NCBI GenBank assembly: GCA_963664325.2 | Contig: CAXXDQ010000007.1 | Span: 224,001 to 288,000, forward strand | Direction of reading: 5' to 3' | Source: Desulfomonilia bacterium | Lineage (GTDB): Bacteria; Desulfobacterota; Desulfomonilia; UBA1062 | Length of the DNA stretch: 64,000 nt | Part shown: in pieces, positions 13,746 through 34,169 of the stretch | How the letters are laid out: every line of letters starts with the position of its first letter | Numbering within the stretch: the stretch's first letter is position 1 | Made by a program: the position numbers and the translations under genes | The notes under the pieces: generated by a model | Databases searched by the model: none | What the model was told of the DNA's origin: nothing | Seen by the model: only the letters and a program-made list of their open reading frames with translations

Positions 13746-13786
13746 CCTCCTTATGGATTTTTTAGCCCCGTCGGGAGCAAGGAGCG
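13746..13786 (-). promoter_or_regulatory. S6:S18 ribosomal protein leader RNA
   Basis: Minus strand reads CTCCTT-GCTCCCGACGGGGC-TAAAAAATCCAT-AAGGAGG: anti-SD/SD stem, inner hairpin and a CCR motif, matching the known S6:S18 autoregulatory leader. Confidence 0.75.
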
Positions 13787-13888
13787 CGTTTCTAATATAA
13801 CAAACACTTTTCATATTCAAGAGTGTTTTTCTAATTATTTGATGTCTGATAAAAGATATGTCATAACTGGATCGGGGAAGATGCTGTA

Positions 13889-14791
13889 TTATGTGGTGTG
13901 AATACCACGTTCGATAAATATTCGTTCATATGCCTTGAGCTGTTCGGGCTTCATGAATTTCTTCATTTTTTCCGGGATAAGGCGTGCTCCTCCAAATTTC
14001 TCCAGTTTGTACGGCCACAACGGATTATATGCAAGCAGCCTGACCCTGTCAAAGCCGCATGAGATAAGAAAATCAGCGACTGCATTAAGGTTAGAGTCAG
14101 TATCGGTAATACCTGGTACAAGAGGTACCCTTGGAAGTATTTCCTTGTCTTTCATATTGGAGAGTACCCTGAAGTTTTCAAGGATATTCTCGTTACTTAC
14201 TCCACAATATCTTTTATGTTCATTGTCGTCTAAAAGTTTGATGTCAAAATATATTTCATCAAGTTTAGGATATATTTTTTCAAGAAATGAGACCATATCA
14301 AAAAAGCCGCAGGTTTCAAGCAAGGTGTGTATCTTGTGCCTTTTCAATTCTGTCAGAAGCTCAGAACAGAAATCCATGAACATGGTCGGTTCTCCACCTG
14401 AAAGAGTAACACCGCCGCCGGATGTATCAAAAAAAGGTTTGTCATTTACAACACACGCCACAATATTTTCAATACTCATGCTTTTTCCTACAATACCGAG
14501 TGCGCCTGTAGGGCAGATGCTTGTGCAGGTAAAACACTCCAGACACCTTGAACGATCAACTCTATGTTTGTCATCATAGGTTATTGCATCTTGGCTGCAA
14601 ATCACTGCACAGGCAAGGCATTTAATGCATTCCTTGCTGTCGAATGAATGTTCGAACCATGGTTTCATGCCTTCCGGATTATGGCACCAGACACATGACA
14701 GGGGACAGCCTTTCATGAAAATGACGGTCCTTATTCCTGGACCGTCATCAAGGGAATTGCCCTTTATTTCGAATATCAGCGGTTTCTTCAT
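13889..14791 (-). CDS. Glycyl-radical enzyme activating enzyme (radical SAM with ferredoxin insert)
   Basis: DGPGIRT, GCPLSCVWCHNPE (CxxxCxxC), two extra CxxCxxCxxxC clusters, GGVTLSGGEP. Confidence 0.95.
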   Translation of the reverse strand: MKKPLIFEIKGNSLDDGPGIRTVIFMKGCPLSCVWCHNPEGMKPWFEHSFDSKECIKCLACAVICSQDAITYDDKHRVDRSRCLECFTCTSICPTGALGIVGKSMSIENIVACVVNDKPFFDTSGGGVTLSGGEPTMFMDFCSELLTELKRHKIHTLLETCGFFDMVSFLEKIYPKLDEIYFDIKLLDDNEHKRYCGVSNENILENFRVLSNMKDKEILPRVPLVPGITDTDSNLNAVADFLISCGFDRVRLLAYNPLWPYKLEKFGGARLIPEKMKKFMKPEQLKAYERIFIERGIHTT

Positions 14792-17748
14792 ATACCGTAT
14801 TCGGCCCTTTCAATAAGTTCAATCTGCATGTCATGGTTGAGCGTTGTGAAATATGCATTGTATCCGGAGATCCTGACAAGCAAATGCTGGTAGTTTTCAG
14901 GATTAAGCATGGCATCCCTCAGTGTATCGGTCGAAACGACATTGAACTGCATCTGCATTCCGCCAAGGTCGCTGTAGGTCTTGATATAGGAATAAATGTG
15001 CTCGACAGAGTCTTCATGTGAATCTGCTGCTGAAGGAACGACTTTGACATTGAATGCAATGTTATTATTCATGTTGAGAGGGTCAAGCCCGGAAACATCT
15101 CGGATATTATCAAGCAGGTTCTTCGATGCATGGGCTTCGGGGGTAAGTCCCGGCGTAAAGGCCTTTCCTGAAAGCCTGCCTGACGGGAGCGCCCCTGTCA
15201 GGCTGCCGAAGGCTACATGATTCGACATTGACCAAAATCCCGCCGTATAAGGCCCTCCCCTGAAATTCCTATGGGCACCATAGCAGTCATGAGCAAATTT
15301 TGTTATCCTGTTCGCTATTCCGAGGGCTTCTGACGAGCCTGAGCCGAAAAGCGGCACCTTTTTTCTGGCCATTGCATGAAGAGCCGGATCATTTATGAAA
15401 TTATTCCTTACGGCTTCCTTCATTTTTGTAAAACTTACTTTCTTTTCTTCAAACACAAGTTTTTTTATTACCATCATTGAATCAGTAATGTCAGCAAGGC
15501 CTATACATGCCGCACCGGAAGAGTTATGCTTTGCTCCGCCCTTTGTCATATCAATACCGCTCTTTATGCCATTATCGATAAGGGATGAAATAAAAGGCGT
15601 AGGCCTTATTATGCTGTGAGCCTCACCGAGTATGTTGTTGTATTCAATCGAATTATCAATCAGGAACCTGAACTGATCGGTAAAGGCCTTATAGAAACTT
15701 TCAAAGGAGTCGAAGTCCTCACCAGTTTTAGGTCCGACCGATAGATTCATCAGAGGATGCCGGCCGTTATTAAGCGCCATCTCAAGTGCAGCGACCATAT
15801 TCATCATCATGCAGTTCGTGTGGCCTATATGCTTTCCTGAAAGGGTCGGCTCCACGCAACCTGTTGCCGACCAGTCCCTGAGATCTTCCAAGGGGTAGGA
15901 AAATTCCTCGAGTGATTTCATCACTGCCGTATCGCTGTGGATCGAAGGCGTTGCCGTTGTGATAAGATTTACTTCGGAGAGGCGCCTGAGATAGGTATCA
16001 CTGTTTTTTTCCTTGTTATAGCGGGCGTTGACATTAGGATCTCTTATCCCAAGCATCTCGGTAACCTTGAGGAAAATGTACGTCATGTCATTAACGGCAT
16101 CATCGCCTTCGGGGGTGACACCTCCGAGGGTGATGGCCTGATCGGATGAACTGCCTCCAAAAAGATAATTCCCAATGTCAGGTATTAGCGGGAGATGGTC
16201 TGTGCACCTCATATAGAAACAGCCGACAAGCTCCAGGGCTTTTTTTATGTAGGCCTTCTGTTCATCTATTGTTTTAAGTTTGTCAATGTCAGAGGTAAAG
16301 AAAGGCTGCAGCCACTGATCGAGCCTTCCGAAAGAAAAACCTGCATTCGTGTTTTCCATATGAACACCAACCCATCCGATCCACAAACAATTCACAGCCT
16401 CATCAAGCGTTTCACAGGGATTTTCAGGTACTTTGGAACAGATTTCTGAAATTCTTAATAGCTCTTTCTTCCTTGCCGGATCATTTACATTTTCTGCATC
16501 TGCCGCTGCCTGAAGTGAAAGATTTCTGGCATAGGATGCAAGGCCTTCGAGACAGAGTATCATGGCGTTTAATGTTGCAATTTTTGTTTTTTCTGTTGGA
16601 TCGACATGCAAAAGCTCTTTTTCAATCTCACTTATAATCCCTTTTGTTCCAAGCCTGAAAAGCTTCGGGAAGTCACAGATCGTGTGTGAGAGTGCAACAG
16701 TCTTCCACAGGAAATAGACCGCAAAGCGCTCGTCGAGCTGCTGGCAAAGCGGGTTGTTATATTTTGACCTTACCCATTCCCTGACATTTTTCCTGGCCCA
16801 ATAGGGGAAGACATCATGGTGAAGCATATTTATCGTTTCAACAGACACGTCATACGGGTTCAAGGGCCTGTAAGGCGCTGTCAGCAGTTCACCCCAGATA
16901 AGAGTCCCGCTTGTGTCAGGGTAAATTACTACGCCGATCGGTTTGGTGGTTGTTGTACCTGCTATCAGGTCGTTCTCGGCAATAATGGGTTTCCTGTTTT
17001 CCATCAGATACTTGAATGCATAACCTTGTCTGAGTTCGGCTTCCCAGGCCGTTCCGTCAGGTTTGAATTCAAACCCGTTATTCCTGAAAAATTCGGTCAG
17101 CAGCACGGGTCTTTCAGCACAGATTTCAGGCCTGTGCGAGAAATGTCTGTCAAGTGATGTGCTGAGCCTGGGAAAGTCTTCCAGCGAGTAATGGCTGAGA
17201 TAAGGATCTTCAAGGTGCTTTACACCAGGGTCAATCGACAGGGTTTTCAGTCTGGTCCTTTTTTTCTCAATCGCAACAGGTTTGCAAGTCTTTTGCTTTG
17301 CTTCAGCCTTTTTCACTTTTTCAATCTCCTGAGACCTGAGCATTGTGCTGATCTGCTTGTTTTTCATCAGGACCGATATAAGGAAGTTAAAGACCTGCAG
17401 ATAGCACATATTGCCCTGAGTAATCATGCGGTTTTTAAGTAGCAGGTTAAGAACTTCGTTAGGCGGCAGGTTTATCATCTGCCTGAGCGTTTCTTCATCA
17501 GTAAATACAAGGCTGCAGTCGGCATCATACGGAATACCGTCGTGGACTTTGGCTTTACCGTTTTTAAATGAAATAGACTTGTTTACCGAATTGTTTACTG
17601 TTCTGATTCCAACCGTAAAATCAATCCATCCGTCAACTGAACGCAGGTATTTCCTGATTCCCGGCCTGAGGTTGACATTTGCGGCCATAAGCTTGAGGAG
17701 TATTCCGGCCAGTACGTTTGTCGGCGACTTGAAAATTTCTTTCACCAT
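14788..17748 (-). CDS. Glycyl radical enzyme (PFL2/eliminase-like) with N-terminal SCP2-like extension
   Basis: GCVEP thiyl loop (Cys codon 15856-15858) and C-terminal LLVRISGY glycyl loop, with ~150 extra N-terminal residues. Start taken at ATG 17748. Confidence 0.92.
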   Translation of the reverse strand: MVKEIFKSPTNVLAGILLKLMAANVNLRPGIRKYLRSVDGWIDFTVGIRTVNNSVNKSISFKNGKAKVHDGIPYDADCSLVFTDEETLRQMINLPPNEVLNLLLKNRMITQGNMCYLQVFNFLISVLMKNKQISTMLRSQEIEKVKKAEAKQKTCKPVAIEKKRTRLKTLSIDPGVKHLEDPYLSHYSLEDFPRLSTSLDRHFSHRPEICAERPVLLTEFFRNNGFEFKPDGTAWEAELRQGYAFKYLMENRKPIIAENDLIAGTTTTKPIGVVIYPDTSGTLIWGELLTAPYRPLNPYDVSVETINMLHHDVFPYWARKNVREWVRSKYNNPLCQQLDERFAVYFLWKTVALSHTICDFPKLFRLGTKGIISEIEKELLHVDPTEKTKIATLNAMILCLEGLASYARNLSLQAAADAENVNDPARKKELLRISEICSKVPENPCETLDEAVNCLWIGWVGVHMENTNAGFSFGRLDQWLQPFFTSDIDKLKTIDEQKAYIKKALELVGCFYMRCTDHLPLIPDIGNYLFGGSSSDQAITLGGVTPEGDDAVNDMTYIFLKVTEMLGIRDPNVNARYNKEKNSDTYLRRLSEVNLITTATPSIHSDTAVMKSLEEFSYPLEDLRDWSATGCVEPTLSGKHIGHTNCMMMNMVAALEMALNNGRHPLMNLSVGPKTGEDFDSFESFYKAFTDQFRFLIDNSIEYNNILGEAHSIIRPTPFISSLIDNGIKSGIDMTKGGAKHNSSGAACIGLADITDSMMVIKKLVFEEKKVSFTKMKEAVRNNFINDPALHAMARKKVPLFGSGSSEALGIANRITKFAHDCYGAHRNFRGGPYTAGFWSMSNHVAFGSLTGALPSGRLSGKAFTPGLTPEAHASKNLLDNIRDVSGLDPLNMNNNIAFNVKVVPSAADSHEDSVEHIYSYIKTYSDLGGMQMQFNVVSTDTLRDAMLNPENYQHLLVRISGYNAYFTTLNHDMQIELIERAEYGI

Positions 17749-17901
17749 ACCTACCCCCTGCACATGATTGTTATACGGTGATAAATGATGCACAATTATC
17801 CGATATTAATTAATATGTGTCCAGATATTTGGATTACGGCATGAAAACAAGGTTAGGTTATAAATTTACGCTTGAAGAAAATTGGAATGAGCACCGTAAT
17901 G

Positions 17902-18528
17902 CTACTGCCTGTATGAAAGTATGATGTCCTCGATAATCCTTTCAGCCATCATTTCAATTTCCGGCTCGACCTTTTTTAGTCCATGGCCGTTGCAAAGGTT
18001 AACAACACCATTGAGCAGCATCCATATCTTAATCACATTATACATTATATCATCTTCTTCCAGATAAGGGACTGCATCCTTCATGGCCGAAAAGGCAACT
18101 TCAATGACCTTCATGGCGATCTGCCTTTCCTCCTGAACAGCTTTCTCCATATCAGTGCCTGCATAGTCGATATATCTGGACAAATTCCGGCTGAACATTA
18201 TTTCATAGTAATCCGGATTCTTTATCCCGAAGTCTATGAATATTCTGATGATAGCTTCAAGCCTTTGAAGAGGGTCATTATTATTCCTGAATATCTTATT
18301 GATTATCATATAAAGTTTTTCAAAGCCCCGGGCCTGAATAAGAAGATATATTTCATCCTTATTATTGTAGTAGTTATAGATATTGGCAGCTGTCATACCA
18401 AGCCGTGATGCAAGCTTTCTCATGCTCAGATTTGAGAACCCGTCATTCACGATTATATTGAGAGCAGCCCTTAATATCCTGTCTTTGACGCTTAATATTT
18501 CTTCTGCTTTTCTTGCTGTTTTAGCCAT
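17902..18528 (-). CDS. TetR/AcrR family transcriptional regulator
   Basis: N-terminal HTH: GFSNLSMRKLA..GMTAANIYNYYNNKDEI. Confidence 0.93.
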   Translation of the reverse strand: MAKTARKAEEILSVKDRILRAALNIIVNDGFSNLSMRKLASRLGMTAANIYNYYNNKDEIYLLIQARGFEKLYMIINKIFRNNNDPLQRLEAIIRIFIDFGIKNPDYYEIMFSRNLSRYIDYAGTDMEKAVQEERQIAMKVIEVAFSAMKDAVPYLEEDDIMYNVIKIWMLLNGVVNLCNGHGLKKVEPEIEMMAERIIEDIILSYRQ

Positions 18529-18549
18529 GACGCACCTTCACATGAAAAA

Positions 18550-20550
18550 TTATTTTAAAATTGCTCCAATCGCGAGATAACCTCCGTTCGCCTTAAGCCC
18601 TATAAGTCCCATCTCAAAGACCGGCAAGTCATTACAAATTGCGGCTATCAATTTGTTGTTATCTTTATTCAGTTCTGTCAGAAGCTCTTTGGCCCTGGCA
18701 TCATCAATTACCAGCGGTGTTTTCTCAAGCCAGGGTTTCATGAGTTCAAGTATCTGGGGCATCAGATTTTTAACAGCTCTTTCGATATCAATGGCTTTTT
18801 CAAGACCAAGCCTGTCTGCAAGATAGTAAATATTGAATTCATTGAGCTTCAGATTGAGTCTGAGATAAGGATTGCCACCCTGAAAAAATACTTGTGTTTC
18901 TACTTCCGTAACAAGATCAATGGCGACTTCAAGCTGCTGGCTAGCATTCATGTAAAGGCCTGTTTTCAGGTTTGGCACATAGAGTTTTATTATCCCGTCT
19001 CTGAAATCAAGGAAAGGCGGTCCGCCAAACACAATATCCGCTTTCATGTCGGCTGGAAGTCCGAGGTCGGGCAGAAGCTTTCCGACCTCAAGGCTCAGAC
19101 CGAACCCGGCCTCGTTCAATGCCGCGAGCATGCCGTTTATCGAATCGGCTGATACTGCCAAAGCCATATTATCATCAATCTTTACTGTATCAAGAGCTTC
19201 AGACAGGGTTATTAATGGCGGAAGGCTTATCACACCATTATCCTTACCCGAATTTGATTTTTCTCCAAGACCTGCCATTAATCCGATATTATCTGTTGCT
19301 CCCGTGAATTTTTCCAGTTCCGCGCTAATCGATAAATCCCTTATGCCGAGAATCGAATCAATGAGCTCATTTTTCCCTTTTTCAGGCAGTATGCTTTCAT
19401 CAATAGTAATCGGAGGAATGTTGGTTATTATAAGACCAAGACCTTTCTTATTGACTAAAGTGTTTAGCGCATTGCTGACAATACCCGCAAGCCACCCCTT
19501 AACCGGGAGCTTCATGTAGTATGTATCGGGGCTCAACCCGAGGCCGTCGAGGAAATTTGTCAGTATGATCATGCTGGGGATGTCGGCTTCAAGTTCTTTA
19601 AGGTTGAGATCAAGCGATGAGATTTTCACGACTAATCCATTGATATCCTTTATCCCCATCTTGAGAGAAAGGTCTGCTGAAATGGCATATAGTTCAAGAA
19701 CAACCTTTGTATCTGCAAGACCACCTGGAAATTTAATGTCGCCAAGACTAATGAATTTAATATCAGCTGATATCTCGATCCCTTTGAGATTCATATCGGT
19801 AAAGAGTCTTGCCGTATCGGCATCTCCTGGTTCATTGGCATATAACTGGTTTATCGATACATCAAAACCTGTTTTGATGTTTATTCCCGTCAGCTTCAAA
19901 TCAGCGACAGCCTTGAATGGTTCGGTGATTTCCACCGTTATATAATGGTCCGTATCAAAGTCCTTTTTGCCGACAGATTCATTGAGGAGGTCAGCTATGA
20001 CAGATGTGAACTCAGTTGGCAGGGCAAGTGTGGAGTTGCCTAATATCACTCCCACCGCATTACTTGATTTTGTTCCGGATGCGACACTTGGCCCCCTTAA
20101 TAGTGAAGTTCTGTCGCGACCAGCATATCCCTTCGCATCAATGGCCGAAGCTTCAATTGCTACAAACGGGCTCGAATCAGAAGGCAGAGGTAGCTCGACT
20201 GAAAAGCTGTTGTCAGAAGAAATATGAGCATCCGAACCATTAACAAGAAGTGAAACAATCTTCTGATTACCATTACTGACGGTCCCTGTGACGACTATGC
20301 TCTGCTGGTCCAAACCTATTACCTTCCCGCTTGAGGGGTATGTTATTCTCACAACAGGTGGAACATATCCCTCTGGATAGTTGATGCTGCCTCCCGGCTC
20401 TTCTCCAGTTGGTCCGGCAGTGTATTCAGTCTGTGGTCTGTAATCCTCGGTACCGATTCCCCCCGAACCTGAACATCCCGAAAGCATGCCCAGCAATATA
20501 ATAAAAAGCACTGTATATATCTTTTTTAAAGTCTTTTCATTGTTCCCCAT
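18550..20550 (-). CDS. Large lipoprotein, Ig-like N-domain plus possible BPI/LBP (TULIP)-like lipid-binding region
   Basis: Lipobox LSGC, then a beta-rich PVVRITYP..VTGTV Ig-like segment. The C-terminal NMALAVSADSINGMLAALNEAG resembles the BPI C-domain; fold call is inference. Confidence 0.65.
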   Translation of the reverse strand: MGNNEKTLKKIYTVLFIILLGMLSGCSGSGGIGTEDYRPQTEYTAGPTGEEPGGSINYPEGYVPPVVRITYPSSGKVIGLDQQSIVVTGTVSNGNQKIVSLLVNGSDAHISSDNSFSVELPLPSDSSPFVAIEASAIDAKGYAGRDRTSLLRGPSVASGTKSSNAVGVILGNSTLALPTEFTSVIADLLNESVGKKDFDTDHYITVEITEPFKAVADLKLTGINIKTGFDVSINQLYANEPGDADTARLFTDMNLKGIEISADIKFISLGDIKFPGGLADTKVVLELYAISADLSLKMGIKDINGLVVKISSLDLNLKELEADIPSMIILTNFLDGLGLSPDTYYMKLPVKGWLAGIVSNALNTLVNKKGLGLIITNIPPITIDESILPEKGKNELIDSILGIRDLSISAELEKFTGATDNIGLMAGLGEKSNSGKDNGVISLPPLITLSEALDTVKIDDNMALAVSADSINGMLAALNEAGFGLSLEVGKLLPDLGLPADMKADIVFGGPPFLDFRDGIIKLYVPNLKTGLYMNASQQLEVAIDLVTEVETQVFFQGGNPYLRLNLKLNEFNIYYLADRLGLEKAIDIERAVKNLMPQILELMKPWLEKTPLVIDDARAKELLTELNKDNNKLIAAICNDLPVFEMGLIGLKANGGYLAIGAILK

Positions 20551-20583
20551 TTTGAAGCCTCCTCGACGTTTCCTTCACGAATT

Positions 20584-21954
20584 CTAAAATTTGAATTCTG
20601 CGGAAATGCCTGCTGCAAAACCATAGCCGGACAGCGTTATCTGTTCTCCTGTCTCTGCTTTCGTGTAATCCCTGTCGATTAGGTAATGATACTGAACCAT
20701 TGTCTGTATGCTTATGGGTTTGCTCCAGTATCTGCCAGGCTTGTCCCATCTGTTTTCAGTCCCGATGCTGAATATGTGCTTGTCGTTGTCGAGAAAATTT
20801 GTCGTCCCTGTCTGATCGGGAACAGGAGATTTCCAGAATGAATACCCTCCCCTTACAATCATGTCGCCAAGCCATTTGTTTGAATATACTACACCCTTCT
20901 CCACCCCGGCTCTTATATTAAGTACGTCTTTAAAGGACGGGGACGGATCACTATGAAGCACATCAATATATCCGGACCACTGCATCCATGTAAGGTCTGC
21001 ACTCAACCTGAGATCGCTGTCAAACCTGTATGCCGCACCAAAGGCCCATTGCGAAGGTGAATAATAGTGAGCAAAATGGTGGTTGTAATCAAAAGAGATT
21101 GTCAGAGGCTGACCGTCAGGGTTCTGAGGATTCTGGACCCGGACATCGACATGATTGGTGCCATAGTCATCCATGTAAAGCTCATCCCGCCATGACAGGC
21201 CGAATGAAAGTTTTTCATTAGGTTTTATCTGCACTCCCACAATCGGCGAAACTGAGGCTTTGGTTTTCTGGTCTTCCGCTATATCCCCTGTAACACTGAC
21301 ATATTGAGAATTTCCGTTCGGGCCTAGAAAATCTTTAACAATTTCGTTTATTGCCTGCTCGCTTACATAAACAGGGCCTTTGCTGTTTGTTTCAAGTTCA
21401 AGAAGGATGTTAGCGCTGATACCTAGTGACAGCCATTTTACCGGTTCATATCCCAGACCTGCCACAGCAACAAGCCTGTGCAGATCATCATAATAAAAGA
21501 TATAGCGCTCCTCTTCGGGAAGTTGTGTCCTCCACCAGTACAGGCTGTCGGTCGGGATCAGAAAAGTCCCGCCTAATACAAGAGGAGTATTCTCCAGATA
21601 CTTTGAAATGCCCCTGATGTCAGCGCTGAAATTAAATCCGATATTCGTAACCGAATCCTGACCTGAGGGTGTATGTTTTCCATTTATCGAACTGTCAACA
21701 GTTCCTTTCAGATCAAATGTTGAAATGCCGAATTCGCTGGTTAGACCTATATCCTTGAAGAAGTTAATTCCGGTAAGACCTGCAGGGTTTGTGTATGCCT
21801 CAGATCCGTCAAGGGATGACGCAACCCCAGTGCCTGCCATTGATTGAGACCTTATACCAAGTCCGCAGATTTCACCCATCGAAGCATAAAGCATTGCTGG
21901 GAATATTGTATTTGAGATCATGAAAATAATTAATATGGAGGTCTTTTTCACCAT
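20584..21954 (-). CDS. OmpP1/FadL-like outer-membrane channel
   Basis: Signal peptide, SMAG..A hatch motif, YTNPAGL, TWMQWS, C-terminal FKF. Start at ATG 21954 after GAGG. Confidence 0.85.
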   Translation of the reverse strand: MVKKTSILIIFMISNTIFPAMLYASMGEICGLGIRSQSMAGTGVASSLDGSEAYTNPAGLTGINFFKDIGLTSEFGISTFDLKGTVDSSINGKHTPSGQDSVTNIGFNFSADIRGISKYLENTPLVLGGTFLIPTDSLYWWRTQLPEEERYIFYYDDLHRLVAVAGLGYEPVKWLSLGISANILLELETNSKGPVYVSEQAINEIVKDFLGPNGNSQYVSVTGDIAEDQKTKASVSPIVGVQIKPNEKLSFGLSWRDELYMDDYGTNHVDVRVQNPQNPDGQPLTISFDYNHHFAHYYSPSQWAFGAAYRFDSDLRLSADLTWMQWSGYIDVLHSDPSPSFKDVLNIRAGVEKGVVYSNKWLGDMIVRGGYSFWKSPVPDQTGTTNFLDNDKHIFSIGTENRWDKPGRYWSKPISIQTMVQYHYLIDRDYTKAETGEQITLSGYGFAAGISAEFKF

Positions 21955-21956
21955 GC

Positions 21957-23342
21957 CTAGAACCTCACCTTCCATGTAATGCCAGTGTTCCAGAGGGTTC
22001 CACCATATTTGACTGATATGCCGCTTACATCCTTGGCTACCTCGGAATCAGGCATGTACTGGCATTGTACATGGAAATCCAGGTCCGAATTCTTGAAGCT
22101 GTATCCGGCGCCTCCGCAAATGATATGGGTATCTCCGTCAATATAATTATAAACTCCTGTCTGTTCAGGAACCGGAGTCGGTCTGTACATGTAGCCGGTT
22201 CTCAATTTTATTTTTTCGGTAACAGAATATTCAAGACCAAGTTTCGGATTCAAAGTGTCTTTGAACTCGGACTCCGGCGTTTCAAGATGAGGTCCTTCAT
22301 ATCCGGACCACTCGGAATACGTAAGGTCAAATGAAGCTGTGATTCTTGATCCCTTTAATCCTATCCCGAACGTATATTCTCTGGGAGAAAAAAATGAATT
22401 GTGAGCAAGATCTACCTTTATGACCGGGATTTTATCCGCCAGAGTCTGGTTGACATTGCCATTCTTGTCCACAGGCAGGATATACAAGTACTGATAGCCG
22501 GTGGAATCAGCGCTTATCTTGTCTCTAAAGCTGAAGCCCAGGCTGAGCCAGTCTATGGGCTTATAGGTAAGACCTGCATAAAGAGCGGCATTGAGAACCA
22601 GTTCCCTGTTTACTGCGACCTTTGCATCGGCGCTGTTGCTGACATCAATATTAAGTTCTTCAATAAGTTTACTCAGGTCGCCGATGTTGTCAACAACGTC
22701 ATTGGTATCAACCTTGAGCGTTATATGGGTATCCGTATCCATAAGTCTGAGCAGGAGCTCGGAACCGATGCCGAGTGAGAACTTATCACCTATGTTCTTG
22801 GAGAGGGCTGCATAAACACCAAGGCCTTTGGCCACATCGTTGTAAACAGGAAAAAAGTAATCTCTTGCAGTTTCCGGGATGTCGATATCAAGTATCGCCT
22901 GTGTGGGAACAAAACAGGAAATGCCGAACATAAAACCTTTCATGTGATGTTCAAGTCTGCCGAGATTCATCACGAGCCCTGCGGTAATGGCTTTTACATT
23001 CTCATCATCTTTTACCACACTACCAGCGCTGTCACTTATTTTAAAGTCAGGCATGACATACATTGCGCCGATGCCTAACTGAAGCCATTCATCTTTCTTC
23101 AATGCGAAATTAAGGCCTGATGGATTGTAGTAAGCGGCAGTGTAATCATCGGAAATCGCCGTCATTGCGCCGGCCATTGAAGAGGCCCTTGAGGAAAGTC
23201 CAAGAAAAGATGCCGTATCAGCTACGGCATCTGTCTGGAAAAATAAAACAAGGAAAAGGGGCAAAAATACGTATTTAAAATAACCGAATAAATCTGGCAT
23301 CCTGTGGCACATACTGTTAACCATGAGCGCAGCCACATACAC
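21957..23342 (-). CDS. OmpP1/FadL-like outer-membrane channel
   Basis: SMAGAMTAISDDYTAAYYNPSGL FadL signature, YSEWS, C-terminal VRF. Exact start is uncertain. Confidence 0.88.
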   Translation of the reverse strand: MYVAALMVNSMCHRMPDLFGYFKYVFLPLFLVLFFQTDAVADTASFLGLSSRASSMAGAMTAISDDYTAAYYNPSGLNFALKKDEWLQLGIGAMYVMPDFKISDSAGSVVKDDENVKAITAGLVMNLGRLEHHMKGFMFGISCFVPTQAILDIDIPETARDYFFPVYNDVAKGLGVYAALSKNIGDKFSLGIGSELLLRLMDTDTHITLKVDTNDVVDNIGDLSKLIEELNIDVSNSADAKVAVNRELVLNAALYAGLTYKPIDWLSLGFSFRDKISADSTGYQYLYILPVDKNGNVNQTLADKIPVIKVDLAHNSFFSPREYTFGIGLKGSRITASFDLTYSEWSGYEGPHLETPESEFKDTLNPKLGLEYSVTEKIKLRTGYMYRPTPVPEQTGVYNYIDGDTHIICGGAGYSFKNSDLDFHVQCQYMPDSEVAKDVSGISVKYGGTLWNTGITWKVRF

Positions 23343-23654
23343 CCTTACAAATATTACAAGCCCCTATCACCCATAAAAAAGCCCATCGGCAACACAACTT
23401 CAAGGTTCTATAACCTCCCCCCTGTAATAACATTGAAACCTATCTCAATTATAAGCAACCAGCGTGCCACACTGATTATTTTTTAATAATTTAAATTATC
23501 TCCATAACTTGTTGATTTAACGCACTTTAGTTTCAAAAAACATTAAAACAATCGTTTAATTGATAAACACAATCTATTCTGATCATATATCCTTATGAAT
23601 ATTTTTTCTCACATACCCTGCAAATAATTTCTCATCATACTTTTCAGATGCTTT

Positions 23655-24341
23655 CTAAATCCATCCAAGTATCCCCATGAAAACTATAAGGCATATGAGG
23701 TCAAATCCCAGGATTGATCCAACAGTTATGGCTTTTGCCTTTACTGTTTTCATATCATGGACCCAATATGCAACCAGATAGAACGGGAAATATCCAATCA
23801 GCCAGATTATGAACGGGAACTTGATCCTCCACCATGAATATTCCCAGGTAAGAGCATTCAGTGCATTCAAGATGATTTCTATGATAACGCTCAGCGTGGT
23901 AAAGAATATGATGAAGAACCACCTGTTCGGCATCCCAAGGATTTTCATATTCTTGTCTTCAGGCAGGATTATGGTTGTGGCGATTCCAAGTATCAAGAAC
24001 ATGAAGCATATTTCTATGTTCAGCCCGATAAGGATCAGATATGCGGTATCGCCGCCCGGGGCTCCCCATACTGGGGCATACTGGGTAAAATAGAATACGA
24101 GGCCGTTCCATATTTCATTGAACCAGTCCATTCCCCAGAGTGCAAGACCTGCAAAGACTACGCTCCAATTCTTTTTGGCCACCTGTGTGTGGTATATGTA
24201 AATGACCATTACAAGAAATGGTATAACATACCATTTGAACGTTGCCGGGTCTCTCAGAATGCCGAGCGACTGAATCGAATACTGCGTCATGTTGTCCATG
24301 TTTTTGACAATTGATAGAGCCTGTTCGGAAAATCCGTTCAT
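23655..24341 (-). CDS. Hypothetical integral membrane protein (~6 TM)
   Basis: Strong SD (GGGAGG). Hydrophobic helices containing polar motifs DWFNEIWN and NIEI. Confidence 0.75.
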   Translation of the reverse strand: MNGFSEQALSIVKNMDNMTQYSIQSLGILRDPATFKWYVIPFLVMVIYIYHTQVAKKNWSVVFAGLALWGMDWFNEIWNGLVFYFTQYAPVWGAPGGDTAYLILIGLNIEICFMFLILGIATTIILPEDKNMKILGMPNRWFFIIFFTTLSVIIEIILNALNALTWEYSWWRIKFPFIIWLIGYFPFYLVAYWVHDMKTVKAKAITVGSILGFDLICLIVFMGILGWI

Positions 24342-32223: not shown

Positions 32224-32240
32224 CATTTTGGAGGTTGACT

Positions 32241-34169
32241 ATGGGTAAAGGTTATATGGGAAAAATATTGTGGGTCGATTTAACCTCAGGAGAAATCAAA
32301 GAGGAGATCATTCCAGACGATGTCTATGAAAGATACCTGGCCGGCCTTGGACTGGGTGCTCATATCTGTTATGAAAGAATCCCGGCAGACGCAGACCCGC
32401 TTGGCCCGGATAACATACTCGGAATACTGCCCGGGCTTTTAACCGGGACAGGCAGCATTTTTTCAGGCAGATGGATGGTCGTCGGAAAATCACCCCTGAC
32501 CGGCGGATGGGGTGATGCAAATTGCGGCGGAACATTTGCACCGGCAATTAAACGTTCGGGATATGATGGTATATTTTTTACAGGTATCAGTGAAAGACCG
32601 GTTTATCTTCATATAAAAGACGGCAGGGCCGAACTTAAAGATGCATCGAGATACTGGGGTAAAGATGCGGTTGAATCGGAAGAGGCTTTTATTGAAGAAC
32701 ACGGCAAAAACGCCAAAGTTGCGGTGATAGGTCCAGCAGGCGAAAGACTGTCTCTGATTGCAGGCGTCTGCAACGAAAAGGGCAGAATCGCAGCCCGCTC
32801 CGGGCTTGGCGCTGTCATGGGTTCAAAGCGACTCAAAGCGGTTGTTCTCGACGGTAAACAGCGAATTGAAATCACCAACAAATCCCGGATGAAAGACCTT
32901 ACCGAAAAGAGCCTCAAGTTCATCAATATAAAGATCCCCCTTCCTGGAGGATGGTTCCTTCCTCTGGTTGGTGCAATGATGCGGATGATGCCCACGCAGA
33001 TGATGCAGGACGGCTTTTTATTCAAGCTTCTCTTGTCGAAGTGGGGTACTATTTTCCAGAACCAGTACTCACTTGAGGCCGGCGACTCTCCAGTAAAAAA
33101 CTGGAAGGGAAGTCTCATTGATTACAACAGAAAAAAGTCATCCAGGACCAATCCTGATCTTATCTGCAACAGGGAATTAAAGAAATACCACTGCTACTCT
33201 TGTCCGATAGGCTGCGGGGGGATATGCAGCATGAAAGGCAAGTATCACGAGACGCACAAGCCCGAGTATGAGACGGTTCTGGCGCTCGGCGGGCTTTTAA
33301 TGAATGATGACCTCGAAAGCATTTTTTACTTGAATGAATACCTCAACCGTGCGGGCATGGATTCAATATCGGCTGGCGGCACAATAGCCTTTGCCATGGA
33401 ATGTTTTGAAAATGGCATACTTACAAAAGAGGATACGGGAGGGCTTGATCTTTCATGGGGAAAGAGTGACGCGATAATCAAGCTGGCAGAGATGATGGTC
33501 GAGCGCAGCGGTATAGGCGATATCCTGGCGGACGGTTCGAAAAAGGCATCCGAGAAGATCGGCAGGGGCAGTAATGATTATGCAATCACTGCAGGCGGTC
33601 AGGAACTGCCGATGCACGACAGCAGGAACGATCCGGGCTATGCACTTCATTACAGCGCGGAGCCTACCCCCGGAAGGCATACAATAGGCTCTCAGCTTGG
33701 ATATGAAATGTATCAGCTCTGGAAGATGGTTTCCGGCATGCCCAAACCGATACACTTCTATCACAAGAATTCAAAATATTTGGTTGATGAAAGAAAGGCA
33801 AAAATGGCAAAGGCCTGCAGCGACTATATGAACGTAATAAATGCAAGCGGCCTGTGCTGGTTCGGCGCCATGATGGGGTGCACGAGAGTTCCCACATTTG
33901 ACTGGCTGAATGCAGCCACAGGCTGGAATAAGTCGGCGGACGAGTACATGGAAATTGGTGCACGTATTCAGACAACCAAGCAGGCATTCAATGTAAAGCA
34001 CGGAATCGATCCAGTCTCGTTCAGGATTAAGGACCGCTGTGTCGGCGTTCCAACGCTTACCGAAGGTGCAAATAAGGGACGAAAGGTTGATGTCGATGGA
34101 CTTATGAACACTTACTGGAAGGAATACGGCTGGGATGAGAAAGGCAGGCCCGCCTCCGACTCATATTAA
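32241..34169 (+). CDS. Aldehyde:ferredoxin oxidoreductase (tungsten AOR family)
   Basis: KSPLTG, IGPAGE, RSGLGAVMGSK.LKA, CYSCPIGCG, PEYET, GMDSIS. Confidence 0.93.
   Translation: MGKGYMGKILWVDLTSGEIKEEIIPDDVYERYLAGLGLGAHICYERIPADADPLGPDNILGILPGLLTGTGSIFSGRWMVVGKSPLTGGWGDANCGGTFAPAIKRSGYDGIFFTGISERPVYLHIKDGRAELKDASRYWGKDAVESEEAFIEEHGKNAKVAVIGPAGERLSLIAGVCNEKGRIAARSGLGAVMGSKRLKAVVLDGKQRIEITNKSRMKDLTEKSLKFINIKIPLPGGWFLPLVGAMMRMMPTQMMQDGFLFKLLLSKWGTIFQNQYSLEAGDSPVKNWKGSLIDYNRKKSSRTNPDLICNRELKKYHCYSCPIGCGGICSMKGKYHETHKPEYETVLALGGLLMNDDLESIFYLNEYLNRAGMDSISAGGTIAFAMECFENGILTKEDTGGLDLSWGKSDAIIKLAEMMVERSGIGDILADGSKKASEKIGRGSNDYAITAGGQELPMHDSRNDPGYALHYSAEPTPGRHTIGSQLGYEMYQLWKMVSGMPKPIHFYHKNSKYLVDERKAKMAKACSDYMNVINASGLCWFGAMMGCTRVPTFDWLNAATGWNKSADEYMEIGARIQTTKQAFNVKHGIDPVSFRIKDRCVGVPTLTEGANKGRKVDVDGLMNTYWKEYGWDEKGRPASDSY

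Follow-up and report, generated by a model that had tools for sequence, protein, structure and literature searches.

The locus and its gene families

We analyzed a 64,000-nucleotide (nt) window of contig CAXXDQ010000007.1 from a Desulfomonilia bacterium, in which seven consecutive genes on the minus strand encode a polytopic membrane protein, two FadL-family proteins (FadL_A and FadL_B), a lipoprotein, a TetR regulator, a glycyl radical enzyme (GRE) and its activase. A previous sequence-only reading had taken these genes for a candidate system that imports an amphipathic lipid and cleaves it by radical chemistry. Open reading frame (ORF) calls and family assignments bear out that all seven genes are present, but we find that they combine two units, a TetR-GRE-activase cassette of wide conservation and a putative uptake module that was joined to it in one genus. 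The following genes and features are given in window positions (aa, amino acids).

13889–14791, minus strand: GRE activase, 300 aa; radical S-adenosylmethionine (SAM) enzyme with a ferredoxin-like 2x[4Fe-4S] insert
14788–17748, minus strand: GRE, 986 aa; eliminase type, catalytic domain ~190–986
17359–17748, minus strand: probable SCP2-like N-terminal domain of the GRE, ~residues 1–130, followed by a charged linker to ~190
17795–17823, minus strand: sigma-70-like promoter TGGACA-17-GATAAT between TetR and GRE; 10/12 matches in a promoter scan
17902–18528, minus strand: TetR regulator, 208 aa; TetR_N, TetR_C_33
18550–20550, minus strand: lipoprotein, 666 aa; signal peptide, lipobox LSGC
20584–21975, minus strand: FadL_B, 463 aa; Toluene_X 48.5 bits
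21957–23342, minus strand: FadL_A, 461 aa; Toluene_X 79.7 bits
23454–23469, minus strand: predicted sigma-54 promoter TGGCACGCTGGTTGCT, 112 nt upstream of the FadL_A start
23581–23610, minus strand: conserved upstream block GAGAAAAAATATTC(A/T)TAAGGA(A/T)ATAT; imperfect inverted repeat
23655–24341, minus strand: polytopic membrane protein, AF_1327-like, 228 aa; probably a mere neighbour
32235–34169, plus strand: aldehyde:ferredoxin oxidoreductase (AOR), AFOR_N + AFOR_C; candidate consumer of the GRE product

The two FadL genes overlap by 19 nt, 33 nt lie between FadL_B and the lipoprotein gene, and 21 nt between the lipoprotein gene and TetR; these coordinates agree with the earlier description of gaps below 40 bp from the first FadL through TetR and of a GRE/activase overlap, which measures 4 nt. 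The TetR-GRE gap is 153 nt, and the gap between the membrane protein and FadL_A, which contains the sigma-54 promoter motif, is 312 nt. The GRE ORF spans 14788–17793 with a GTG at 17793 as its 5'-most start; translation most likely begins at the ATG at 17748, which lies behind a GGGGGTAGG ribosome-binding site and agrees with the N-termini of relatives.

Both FadL proteins have a signal peptide and match the Toluene_X family (FadL/TodX, PF03349) above 29.7 bits. The hatch-domain motif of the FadL family, NPA, is invariant in our alignment of FadL_B (N63-P64-A65), whereas FadL_A carries YYNPSGL, and thus NPS in its place. FadL_A matches the FadL and AupA models only weakly, far below the cut-offs; with the AupA model, whose cut-off is 840, the two window proteins score 36.6 and 29.9 bits. 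FadL channels are importers of hydrophobic compounds. The source genome encodes seven FadL-family genes in all and has a second tandem FadL_A-like/FadL_B-like pair on contig C3 (717486–720276; L174:7487-10277), flanked by a 1105-aa ORF without family match and an AI-2E-type transporter; in this genome, FadL genes thus seem to recur in pairs.

The lipoprotein comprises an Ig-like domain (~residues 60–170, weak Glucodextran_B/Big_7 matches) of a type that many large surface proteins have. Its C-terminal domain of ~480 aa appears by its sequence to be a near orphan. A search of 5.8 billion clusters returned 13 relatives only, and ~4 full-length representative clusters were found among 1.84 billion, the remaining matches being confined to the Ig-like part. 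We found no sequence relative in the PDB. One atlas cluster in which 21% of the members are annotated as LBP_BPI_CETP offered a lead to a BPI/TULIP-like fold, which a PDB profile search did not support; a genome search with PF01273 returned no match, controls included, and did not confirm the lead. An uptake role for the FadL proteins together with the lipoprotein is suggested by a functional precedent, AupA/AupB of Marinobacter hydrocarbonoclasticus (PMC5989066), where one operon encodes a FadL-family outer-membrane protein together with a dedicated partner for the uptake of insoluble alkanes. AupB is an inner-membrane protein, whereas our locus has two FadL paralogues, a sigma-54-type promoter and a 666-aa lipoprotein.

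The glycyl radical enzyme and its N-terminal extension

The GRE matches the Pfam families PFL-like (2.4e-162) and Gly_radical (7.8e-23, 81.5 bits with a cut-off of 22.2). Its Cys loop reads ATGCVEP (C631-V-E633), and the glycyl site is G962 in RISGY. In eliminase-type GREs the Glu two residues after the thiyl Cys is the general base. C631, E633, H355 and G962 are invariant in an alignment of 13 family members, and H355 aligns with His164 of glycerol dehydratase (PDB ID 1r8w; HMMER alignment). Four residues that we take to line the glycerol dehydratase pocket (Ser-282, Tyr-339, Asp-447 and Tyr-640), as we also take His164 to serve the leaving group, correspond to Gly-470, Asp-536, Asn-645 and Trp-839 in our GRE, all invariant across the 13 sequences. 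The scaffold is thus that of a radical 1,2-eliminase which keeps the His/Glu pair around a pocket unlike that of any characterized member.

The closest solved relatives are the uncharacterized Archaeoglobus fulgidus PFL2 (2f3o, 382.6 bits), glycerol dehydratase (1r8w, 368.5 bits) and propanediol dehydratase (5i2a, 350.9 bits). With these enzymes (for glycerol dehydratase, that of C. butyricum, 1r8w/1r9d) our GRE shares the fold family, the glycyl site, the GCVE loop, the His and the adjacent activase with its ferredoxin-like insert. It differs in being ~190 aa longer at its N-terminus, in the replacement of the four glycerol dehydratase pocket residues and in its score with TIGR01774, the PFL2/glycerol dehydratase subfamily model, which is below the cut-off (478.8 and 678.2 bits, respectively). 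Its neighbours are TetR, AOR and lipid-type reductases rather than the microcompartment and polyol genes that accompany the known enzymes. The other solved eliminases (CutC, HypD, IslA and HpsG/HpfG) score 240–330 bits and have the same GCVE-type radical elimination scaffold, but the GRE reaches only about one third of the NCBIfam equivalog cut-offs: no equivalog tried came near its cut-off (HypD, 398.2 of 1100; CutC, 377.6 of 1050; HpsG and HpfG, 370.6 and 352.4 of 1000). We know of no lipid-carrier domain in any of these eliminases. The sequence-only reading had placed the enzyme among the GCVE-type GREs, and this holds, as the loop is present; no substrate-specific NCBIfam model was reached. 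X-succinate synthases (BssA/TutD, 4pkc; MasD, 9o8u) resemble our GRE in being GREs for water-insoluble molecules, but the similarity is much weaker (197–218 bits, aligned only from ~residue 388), and the window enzyme has the eliminase GCVE/His pattern instead. To our knowledge, X-succinate synthases are the only GREs known to act on hydrophobic substrates, and all characterized eliminase-type GREs act on small soluble molecules.

The N-terminal extension of ~190 aa, which solved GREs lack, had been overlooked in the earlier reading. Scanned singly, the window GRE matches Pfam SCP2 (PF02036) with E = 0.1 (13.3–13.4 bits, profile positions 14–99 of 101). Of 30 N-termini from the family, 12 match SCP2 at E ≤ 1, the best with 1.5e-4; every other Pfam family is matched by one of the 30 at most. 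When a profile of these 30 N-termini was compared with the PDB, the top three hits were rabbit and human SCP2 (E ~0.35). In an hhalign comparison with 17 established SCP2 domains of the same order, 56 columns aligned in register (E 5.7e-4, probability 29%). The extension is probably an SCP2 lipid-carrier-like domain followed by a charged linker. This domain independently suggests a hydrophobic substrate, in line with what had been proposed from the FadL genes. SCP2 proteins are common in the lineage: the source genome has eight matches above the cut-off, at least one is found in 50 of 52 genomes of the order, and they occur both as stand-alone proteins of 115–140 aa and as fusions of 360–1300 aa.

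The family is widespread. A word-index protein search with the GRE gave 1662 proteins at E ≤ 0.001 among 8000 candidates; the 120 matches listed are 837–1025 aa long and share 64–100% identity with the GRE over 85–100% coverage. Relatives are encoded in 335 of 428 pattern-matched stretches from contigs sampled at one genome per species, that is in 335 species genomes. By public label they come from metagenome-assembled genomes (MAGs) of Smithella/Syntrophaceae, Desulfomonilia, Desulfobacterales, Actinomycetota (Anoxymicrobiaceae and Geothermincolia), Chloroflexota, Spirochaetota, Bacillota and others, Desulforapulum and Tepidimicrobium MAGs included, and mostly from anaerobes of sediment, groundwater and peat. 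Full-length SCP2-GREs (58–100% identity) are present in at least 30 of 52 genomes of the order.

At the level of titles and abstract openings, none of the papers we found connects a GRE to SCP2, sterol carrier protein, FadL or ether lipids, and there was nothing relevant on benzylsuccinate synthase with TodX or on alkylsuccinate synthase with FadL. To this extent the literature is consistent with the earlier statement that no system combining a GRE with FadL has been described.

The source genome has a total of six GRE matches, and GREs are abundant throughout its family-level group. Two further PFL2-type GREs of 798 and 860 aa are encoded on contig C7 (76129–78444 and 85773–87659; L172:4124-6520 and 13762-16344) with an indolepyruvate-decarboxylase-like gene between them, and only the first (798 aa) passes the TIGR01774 cut-off.

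Joining of the FadL operon to the cassette

We examined the gene neighbourhoods of the best 80 public GRE loci, defining neighbours by ORF clustering and Pfam/NCBIfam matches. Of these, 71 contain an activase homologue, which in 53 cases is the next gene after the GRE in the same orientation. Homologues of TetR were found in 53 loci and immediately precede the GRE, in the same orientation, in 40; among the 44 loci in which the TetR-GRE distance could be measured, it does not exceed 56 nt in 31. TetR normally heads a TetR-GRE-activase operon, and this unit is the conserved core. In the window, the activase matches TIGR02494 (284.9 bits, cut-off 174.35) and Pfam Radical_SAM and Fer4, all substrate-specific activase equivalogs in NCBIfam remaining below cut-off; TetR matches TetR_N (42.1 bits, cut-off 24) and TetR_C_33 (35.5 bits), and no NCBIfam equivalog reaches its cut-off.

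FadL and lipoprotein homologues were detected in one of the 80 loci (L004, from the same genus), even at E ≤ 10 in phmmer searches with the window proteins. A broader profile built from the seven FadL paralogues of the source genome gave the same answer for all ORFs of the 80 loci and of 20 more. Fifteen further GRE loci of the family, nine of them already among the 80, added no FadL in the six new ones. FadL adjoins the GRE in five of ~90 distinct GRE loci: the window, three genomes of the same genus (L123, L124 and L125) and the metagenome contig L171, the only contig recovered in a metagenome scan for more lipoprotein loci. On a FastTree tree of 89 GREs the FadL-bearing loci form one clade that requires a single gain; the four contained in the tree group with a support of 100, and their sisters have no FadL context.

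The full order membrane protein-FadL_A-FadL_B-lipoprotein-TetR-GRE-activase is found in the four genus genomes. L171 contains the 3' end of a FadL gene, the lipoprotein, 21 nt, TetR, 79 nt and the GRE, and shares with the window 58% (lipoprotein), 64% (TetR) and 65% (GRE N-terminus) identity. The seven-gene arrangement is not due to chance, because the same order recurs in the three other genus genomes and FadL(3' end)-lipoprotein-TetR-GRE is also found on this more diverged contig. When the 52 genomes of the order were compared, the lipoprotein had full-length homologues in the four genus genomes (76–100% identity) and in a sister-genus genome, G018 (36%); G003 has a homologue in two pieces (41–42%), and in seven other matching genomes the match covers the Ig-like N-terminal part or short stretches only. 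In G018 (locus L121), FadL_A-FadL_B-lipoprotein is followed by an outer-membrane barrel and a GH15-like gene; the SCP2-GRE is absent, and the best GRE match in the whole genome is 6e-64. In G003, an ammonium transporter follows the lipoprotein and the GRE resides on another short contig. Ntn-hydrolase-type genes (AAT/C45-like and penicillin-amidase family) lie near GRE-less FadL/lipoprotein copies in two sister genera (L121:11080-13071 and L122:515-2935), and may hint at N-acyl amide substrates for the FadL/lipoprotein module.

Thus the seven genes are not one conserved system, because close GRE homologues lack FadL and the lipoprotein and because the trio occurs without the GRE. The sequence-only reading had itself named close GRE homologues without such neighbours as a finding that would speak against it, and this is what we observe in 79 of the 80 public loci and in six more. 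Of its overall interpretation, the eliminase-type GRE, the hint of a hydrophobic substrate and the fit of an aldehyde or ketone product stand, whereas the FadL proteins, the lipoprotein and the membrane protein cannot be kept as conserved parts of the system.

The junction between the two modules is conserved. The gap between the lipoprotein gene and TetR measures 21–22 nt and contains a ribosome-binding site in the window, L123, L124, L125 and L171, and a promoter/terminator scan predicted no terminator between the two genes. TetR, the regulator of the GRE, appears to have been absorbed into the FadL operon as its fourth gene, since this short gap is kept here whereas TetR heads the GRE operon elsewhere.

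Upstream of FadL_A, the motif TGGCACGCTGGTTGCT conforms to the sigma-54 consensus, with -24 GG and -12 GC elements at exact spacing. It is the sole perfect match in the window, where 0.14 are expected and at least one occurs in 13 of 100 shuffled sequences. The site is found at the same place in four of four genus genomes while the surrounding intergenic DNA diverges. Perfect matches occur in six of the 174 fetched loci, four of which represent this FadL_A upstream site, L004 and L123 being the same contig. Before the GRE-less trio of G018, we detected only matches with two mismatches, a chance level. The upstream block GAGAAAAAATATTC(A/T)TAAGGA(A/T)ATAT is likewise kept in the four genus genomes within diverging intergenic DNA, and is a possible activator binding site.

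The hexamers and spacing of the sigma-70-like promoter before the GRE (TGGACA-17-GATAAT) are kept in the window, L123, L124, L125 and L171. A TAATTA-centred palindrome (ATATTAATTAATAT in the window) occupies the promoter spacer both in the window and in L171, which share 64% TetR identity, and the spacer is unrelated in the three genus genomes with a TetR ~54% identical to that of the window. As the spacer sequence co-varies with the TetR type, these comparisons hint that TetR binds there, making the spacer a candidate operator. A search for a shared TetR operator upstream of FadL_A, GRE and AOR gave only unrelated AT-rich palindromes. The genes flanking TetR are 78–94% identical between the window and L123/L124/L125, and the TetR-GRE intergenic region is 153 nt long in the window and 93 nt in L004, which suggests that TetR and its target site have been replaced or have diverged fast. 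In L123–L125, the GRE 5' leader from the -10 element to the ribosome-binding site contains inverted repeats whose arms differ yet are complementary (TGTCCT..AGGACA in L123, TCATT..AATGA in L125). They are absent from the window and may represent a conserved hairpin or an operator.

The reading we favour, to which we give about an even chance, is that two modules have been fused in one genus-level lineage of anaerobic, deltaproteobacterium-like bacteria, the SCP2-GRE cassette and a sigma-54-driven FadL uptake operon, and that they share an exogenous hydrophobic substrate. Several observations weigh against it. FadL and the lipoprotein are missing from all but one of the 80 public GRE loci and from the six further ones, and their association with the GRE has a single origin; the trio stands without a GRE in G018, and unrelated genes follow the lipoprotein in G003. 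GRE and activase appear to have their own promoter, so that co-expression with the FadL operon would not be required. The lipoprotein seems to have no recognizable lipid-binding domain. The SCP2 score of the window's own GRE (13.3 bits) is below the Pfam threshold of 21.3, and as four of five mapped glycerol-dehydratase pocket residues are replaced, the enzyme may catalyze a reaction other than diol dehydration. The window encodes no cognate sigma-54 activator, 16 being found elsewhere in the genome, and rpoN may be frameshifted or misassembled in the source MAG, where the Sigma54_DBD match is split over two frames (G000:C4:720077-720554; a 426-aa frame and a second frame with a TAG).

Some of these same observations would follow if the trio were an independent outer-membrane module, serving hydrophobic nutrient uptake or an envelope function, that landed between AOR and TetR-GRE-activase in the genus ancestor and has no substrate in common with the GRE. 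The trio without a GRE in G018, the unrelated genes in G003, the absence of FadL from 79 of 80 related loci with one gain on the tree and the promoter retained by the GRE are all compatible with such a chance juxtaposition, as is the fact that the same block brought unrelated genes (aminotransferases and an amino-acid permease) between TetR and AOR. The 21–22-nt junction, however, is kept in five sequences whose lipoproteins are down to 58% identical, TetR is embedded in the FadL operon although it elsewhere heads that of the GRE, and the SCP2-like domain points independently to a hydrophobic GRE substrate. We consider this explanation rather unlikely, though it deserves more weight than the other alternatives discussed below.

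Possible substrate, pathway and flanking genes

The genes that recur beside the GRE in the 80 public loci point to its product. The following neighbours were counted.

Short-chain dehydrogenase/reductase (SDR): 21/80 loci
NAD-epimerase family protein, closest to HpnA/OleD models: 21/80 loci
Fatty-acid CoA ligase: 16/80 loci
Aldehyde:ferredoxin oxidoreductase: 15/80 loci, with a ferredoxin in 8
ADP-forming acyl-CoA synthetase: 12/80 loci
Acyl-CoA dehydrogenase: 10/80 loci

The SDR and NAD-epimerase/OleD-like reductases are placed second or third after the GRE. On the tree of 89 GREs, the AOR label and the SDR label each need three changes. In a Bacillota locus labelled Tepidimicrobium (L075), activase, GRE, ferredoxin and AOR lie on one strand, and since this AOR is only 27% identical to that of the window, it was recruited independently. 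In the window's own family AOR is divergent from TetR: the window AOR is 62–66% identical to AORs that divergently adjoin TetR-GRE-activase in sister genera, and it is found at the same relative place in two other genus genomes. In our reading, an ancestral AOR<>TetR-GRE-activase arrangement would have been split in this genus by ~13.7 kb that include the FadL operon. Because AOR, reductase and acyl-CoA genes recur beside its relatives, the GRE probably yields an aldehyde or ketone that enters acyl-CoA metabolism after oxidation or reduction. Such a product had been part of the sequence-only reading, and fits these neighbours. FGGY kinase, MlaE, FliS and Maf genes, found near the cassette in 10–12 loci each, were also considered as partners and rejected as lineage synteny.

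On the fusion reading, the FadL-FadL-lipoprotein operon would have been inserted directly upstream of TetR-GRE-activase. The two FadL channels would admit an exogenous hydrophobic compound across the outer membrane, with the lipoprotein helping in its capture or hand-over. TetR may sense this substrate or a derivative and release the sigma-70-like promoter before GRE and activase. Within the GRE, the SCP2-like domain would hold the hydrophobic tail of the water-insoluble substrate while the catalytic domain, with Cys-631 as predicted thiyl radical, Glu-633 as general base and His-355 in the place of the His that serves the leaving group in glycerol dehydratase, removes a hydrogen adjacent to a head-group hydroxyl and expels OH, OR or a similar leaving group from the neighbouring position. 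The product would be an aldehyde or ketone, and an aldehyde could be taken by the AOR orthologue encoded ~13.7 kb away. In relatives, the aldehyde may be oxidized by AOR or reduced by SDR-type enzymes before activation to an acyl-CoA.

A small polar metabolite could be the substrate instead, with the N-terminal domain of the GRE having a structural or regulatory function. Every characterized GCVE-type GRE uses a small soluble substrate, the SCP2 assignment is based on weak scores, and in 11 loci an FGGY gene resembling glycerol kinase is found close to the cassette. These FGGY loci, however, also share FliS and Maf, so that the adjacency looks like lineage synteny, and the recurrent neighbours are fatty-acid CoA ligase, acyl-CoA dehydrogenase and OleD-like/SDR reductases. 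No polar-solute transporter or microcompartment gene recurs in the 20 annotated clusters of the 24 largest, and the GRE pocket differs from those of the small-molecule enzymes. We regard a small polar substrate as very unlikely.

Equally improbable in our view is a biosynthetic or remodelling role, in which the GRE would act on an endogenous membrane lipid (deoxygenation of a polyol or diol lipid is one example) and FadL and the lipoprotein would serve envelope lipid traffic. The family is very conserved across phyla (64–84% identity), its HpnA-like/OleD-like and KDS-reductase-like SDR neighbours resemble lipid-biosynthetic enzymes, and the lineage is rich in SCP2 proteins, including the eight of the source genome. 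Yet TetR control together with neighbours such as AOR, CoA ligase and acyl-CoA dehydrogenase is typical of catabolic loci, members of the family are also found in Actinomycetota, Bacillota and Chloroflexota, which are generally held to lack an outer membrane, and FadL channels work as importers.

A more specific form of the fusion reading appears unlikely to us, if less so than the last two alternatives: the locus might be dedicated to the anaerobic scavenging of exogenous membrane-type lipids that resist hydrolases (for example alkyl-glycerol ethers, long-chain vicinal diols or polyol lipids), with the two FadL channels and the lipoprotein capturing them at the outer membrane and an SCP2-tethered eliminase cutting the polar head from the tail without oxygen. 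If this is true, no radical enzyme would have been shown before to attack a lipid headgroup, and the reaction would supply a missing step in the anoxic turnover of ether or diol lipids in sediments. More generally, a GRE family present in 335 species genomes carries what looks like a lipid-carrier domain, and the FadL operon provides a second clue that is separate from the enzyme sequence. The FadL-lipoprotein fusion is lineage-specific yet informative, as it hints at a hydrophobic substrate from outside the cell. It would narrow the substrate search to exogenous water-insoluble compounds, and offers the TetR ligand, the FadL/lipoprotein module and sigma-54 control as experimental handles.

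The membrane protein at the upstream end, which the sequence-only reading had counted as a member of the locus, is probably a mere neighbour. It has no match in local Pfam or NCBIfam, and an atlas feature comparison relates it to AF_1327-family clusters (score 0.96). The family is found in 47 of 52 genomes of the order with two to three copies, and the closest copies of other genera are located on other contigs or far from the GRE. With several copies per genome and no linkage of its orthologues to the GRE in other genera, we rejected it as part of the system. AF_1327-like genes also lie 3–9 kb downstream of the SCP2-GRE, beside SpoIIE-type phosphatase genes, in three Spirochaetota loci (L043:16152-16805, L044:21251-21907 and L048:18800-19453).

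The upstream flank contains two HisC-like aminotransferases on the opposite strand; they were considered as serine-palmitoyltransferase-like sphingolipid genes and excluded as such by their HisC-like nature. Downstream of the activase, the window has an rpsF-rpsR-DUF2232-rplI-dnaB block. In L123, L124 and L125 the activase is followed instead by a PAS-rich hybrid histidine kinase of 944–1192 aa and a PI-PLC-like protein (L123:1151-6466, L124:14019-19000 and L125:858-5327), so that a rearrangement breakpoint lies immediately behind the activase gene. This PAS-kinase flank contains a second perfect sigma-54 motif (L123:1207-1222).

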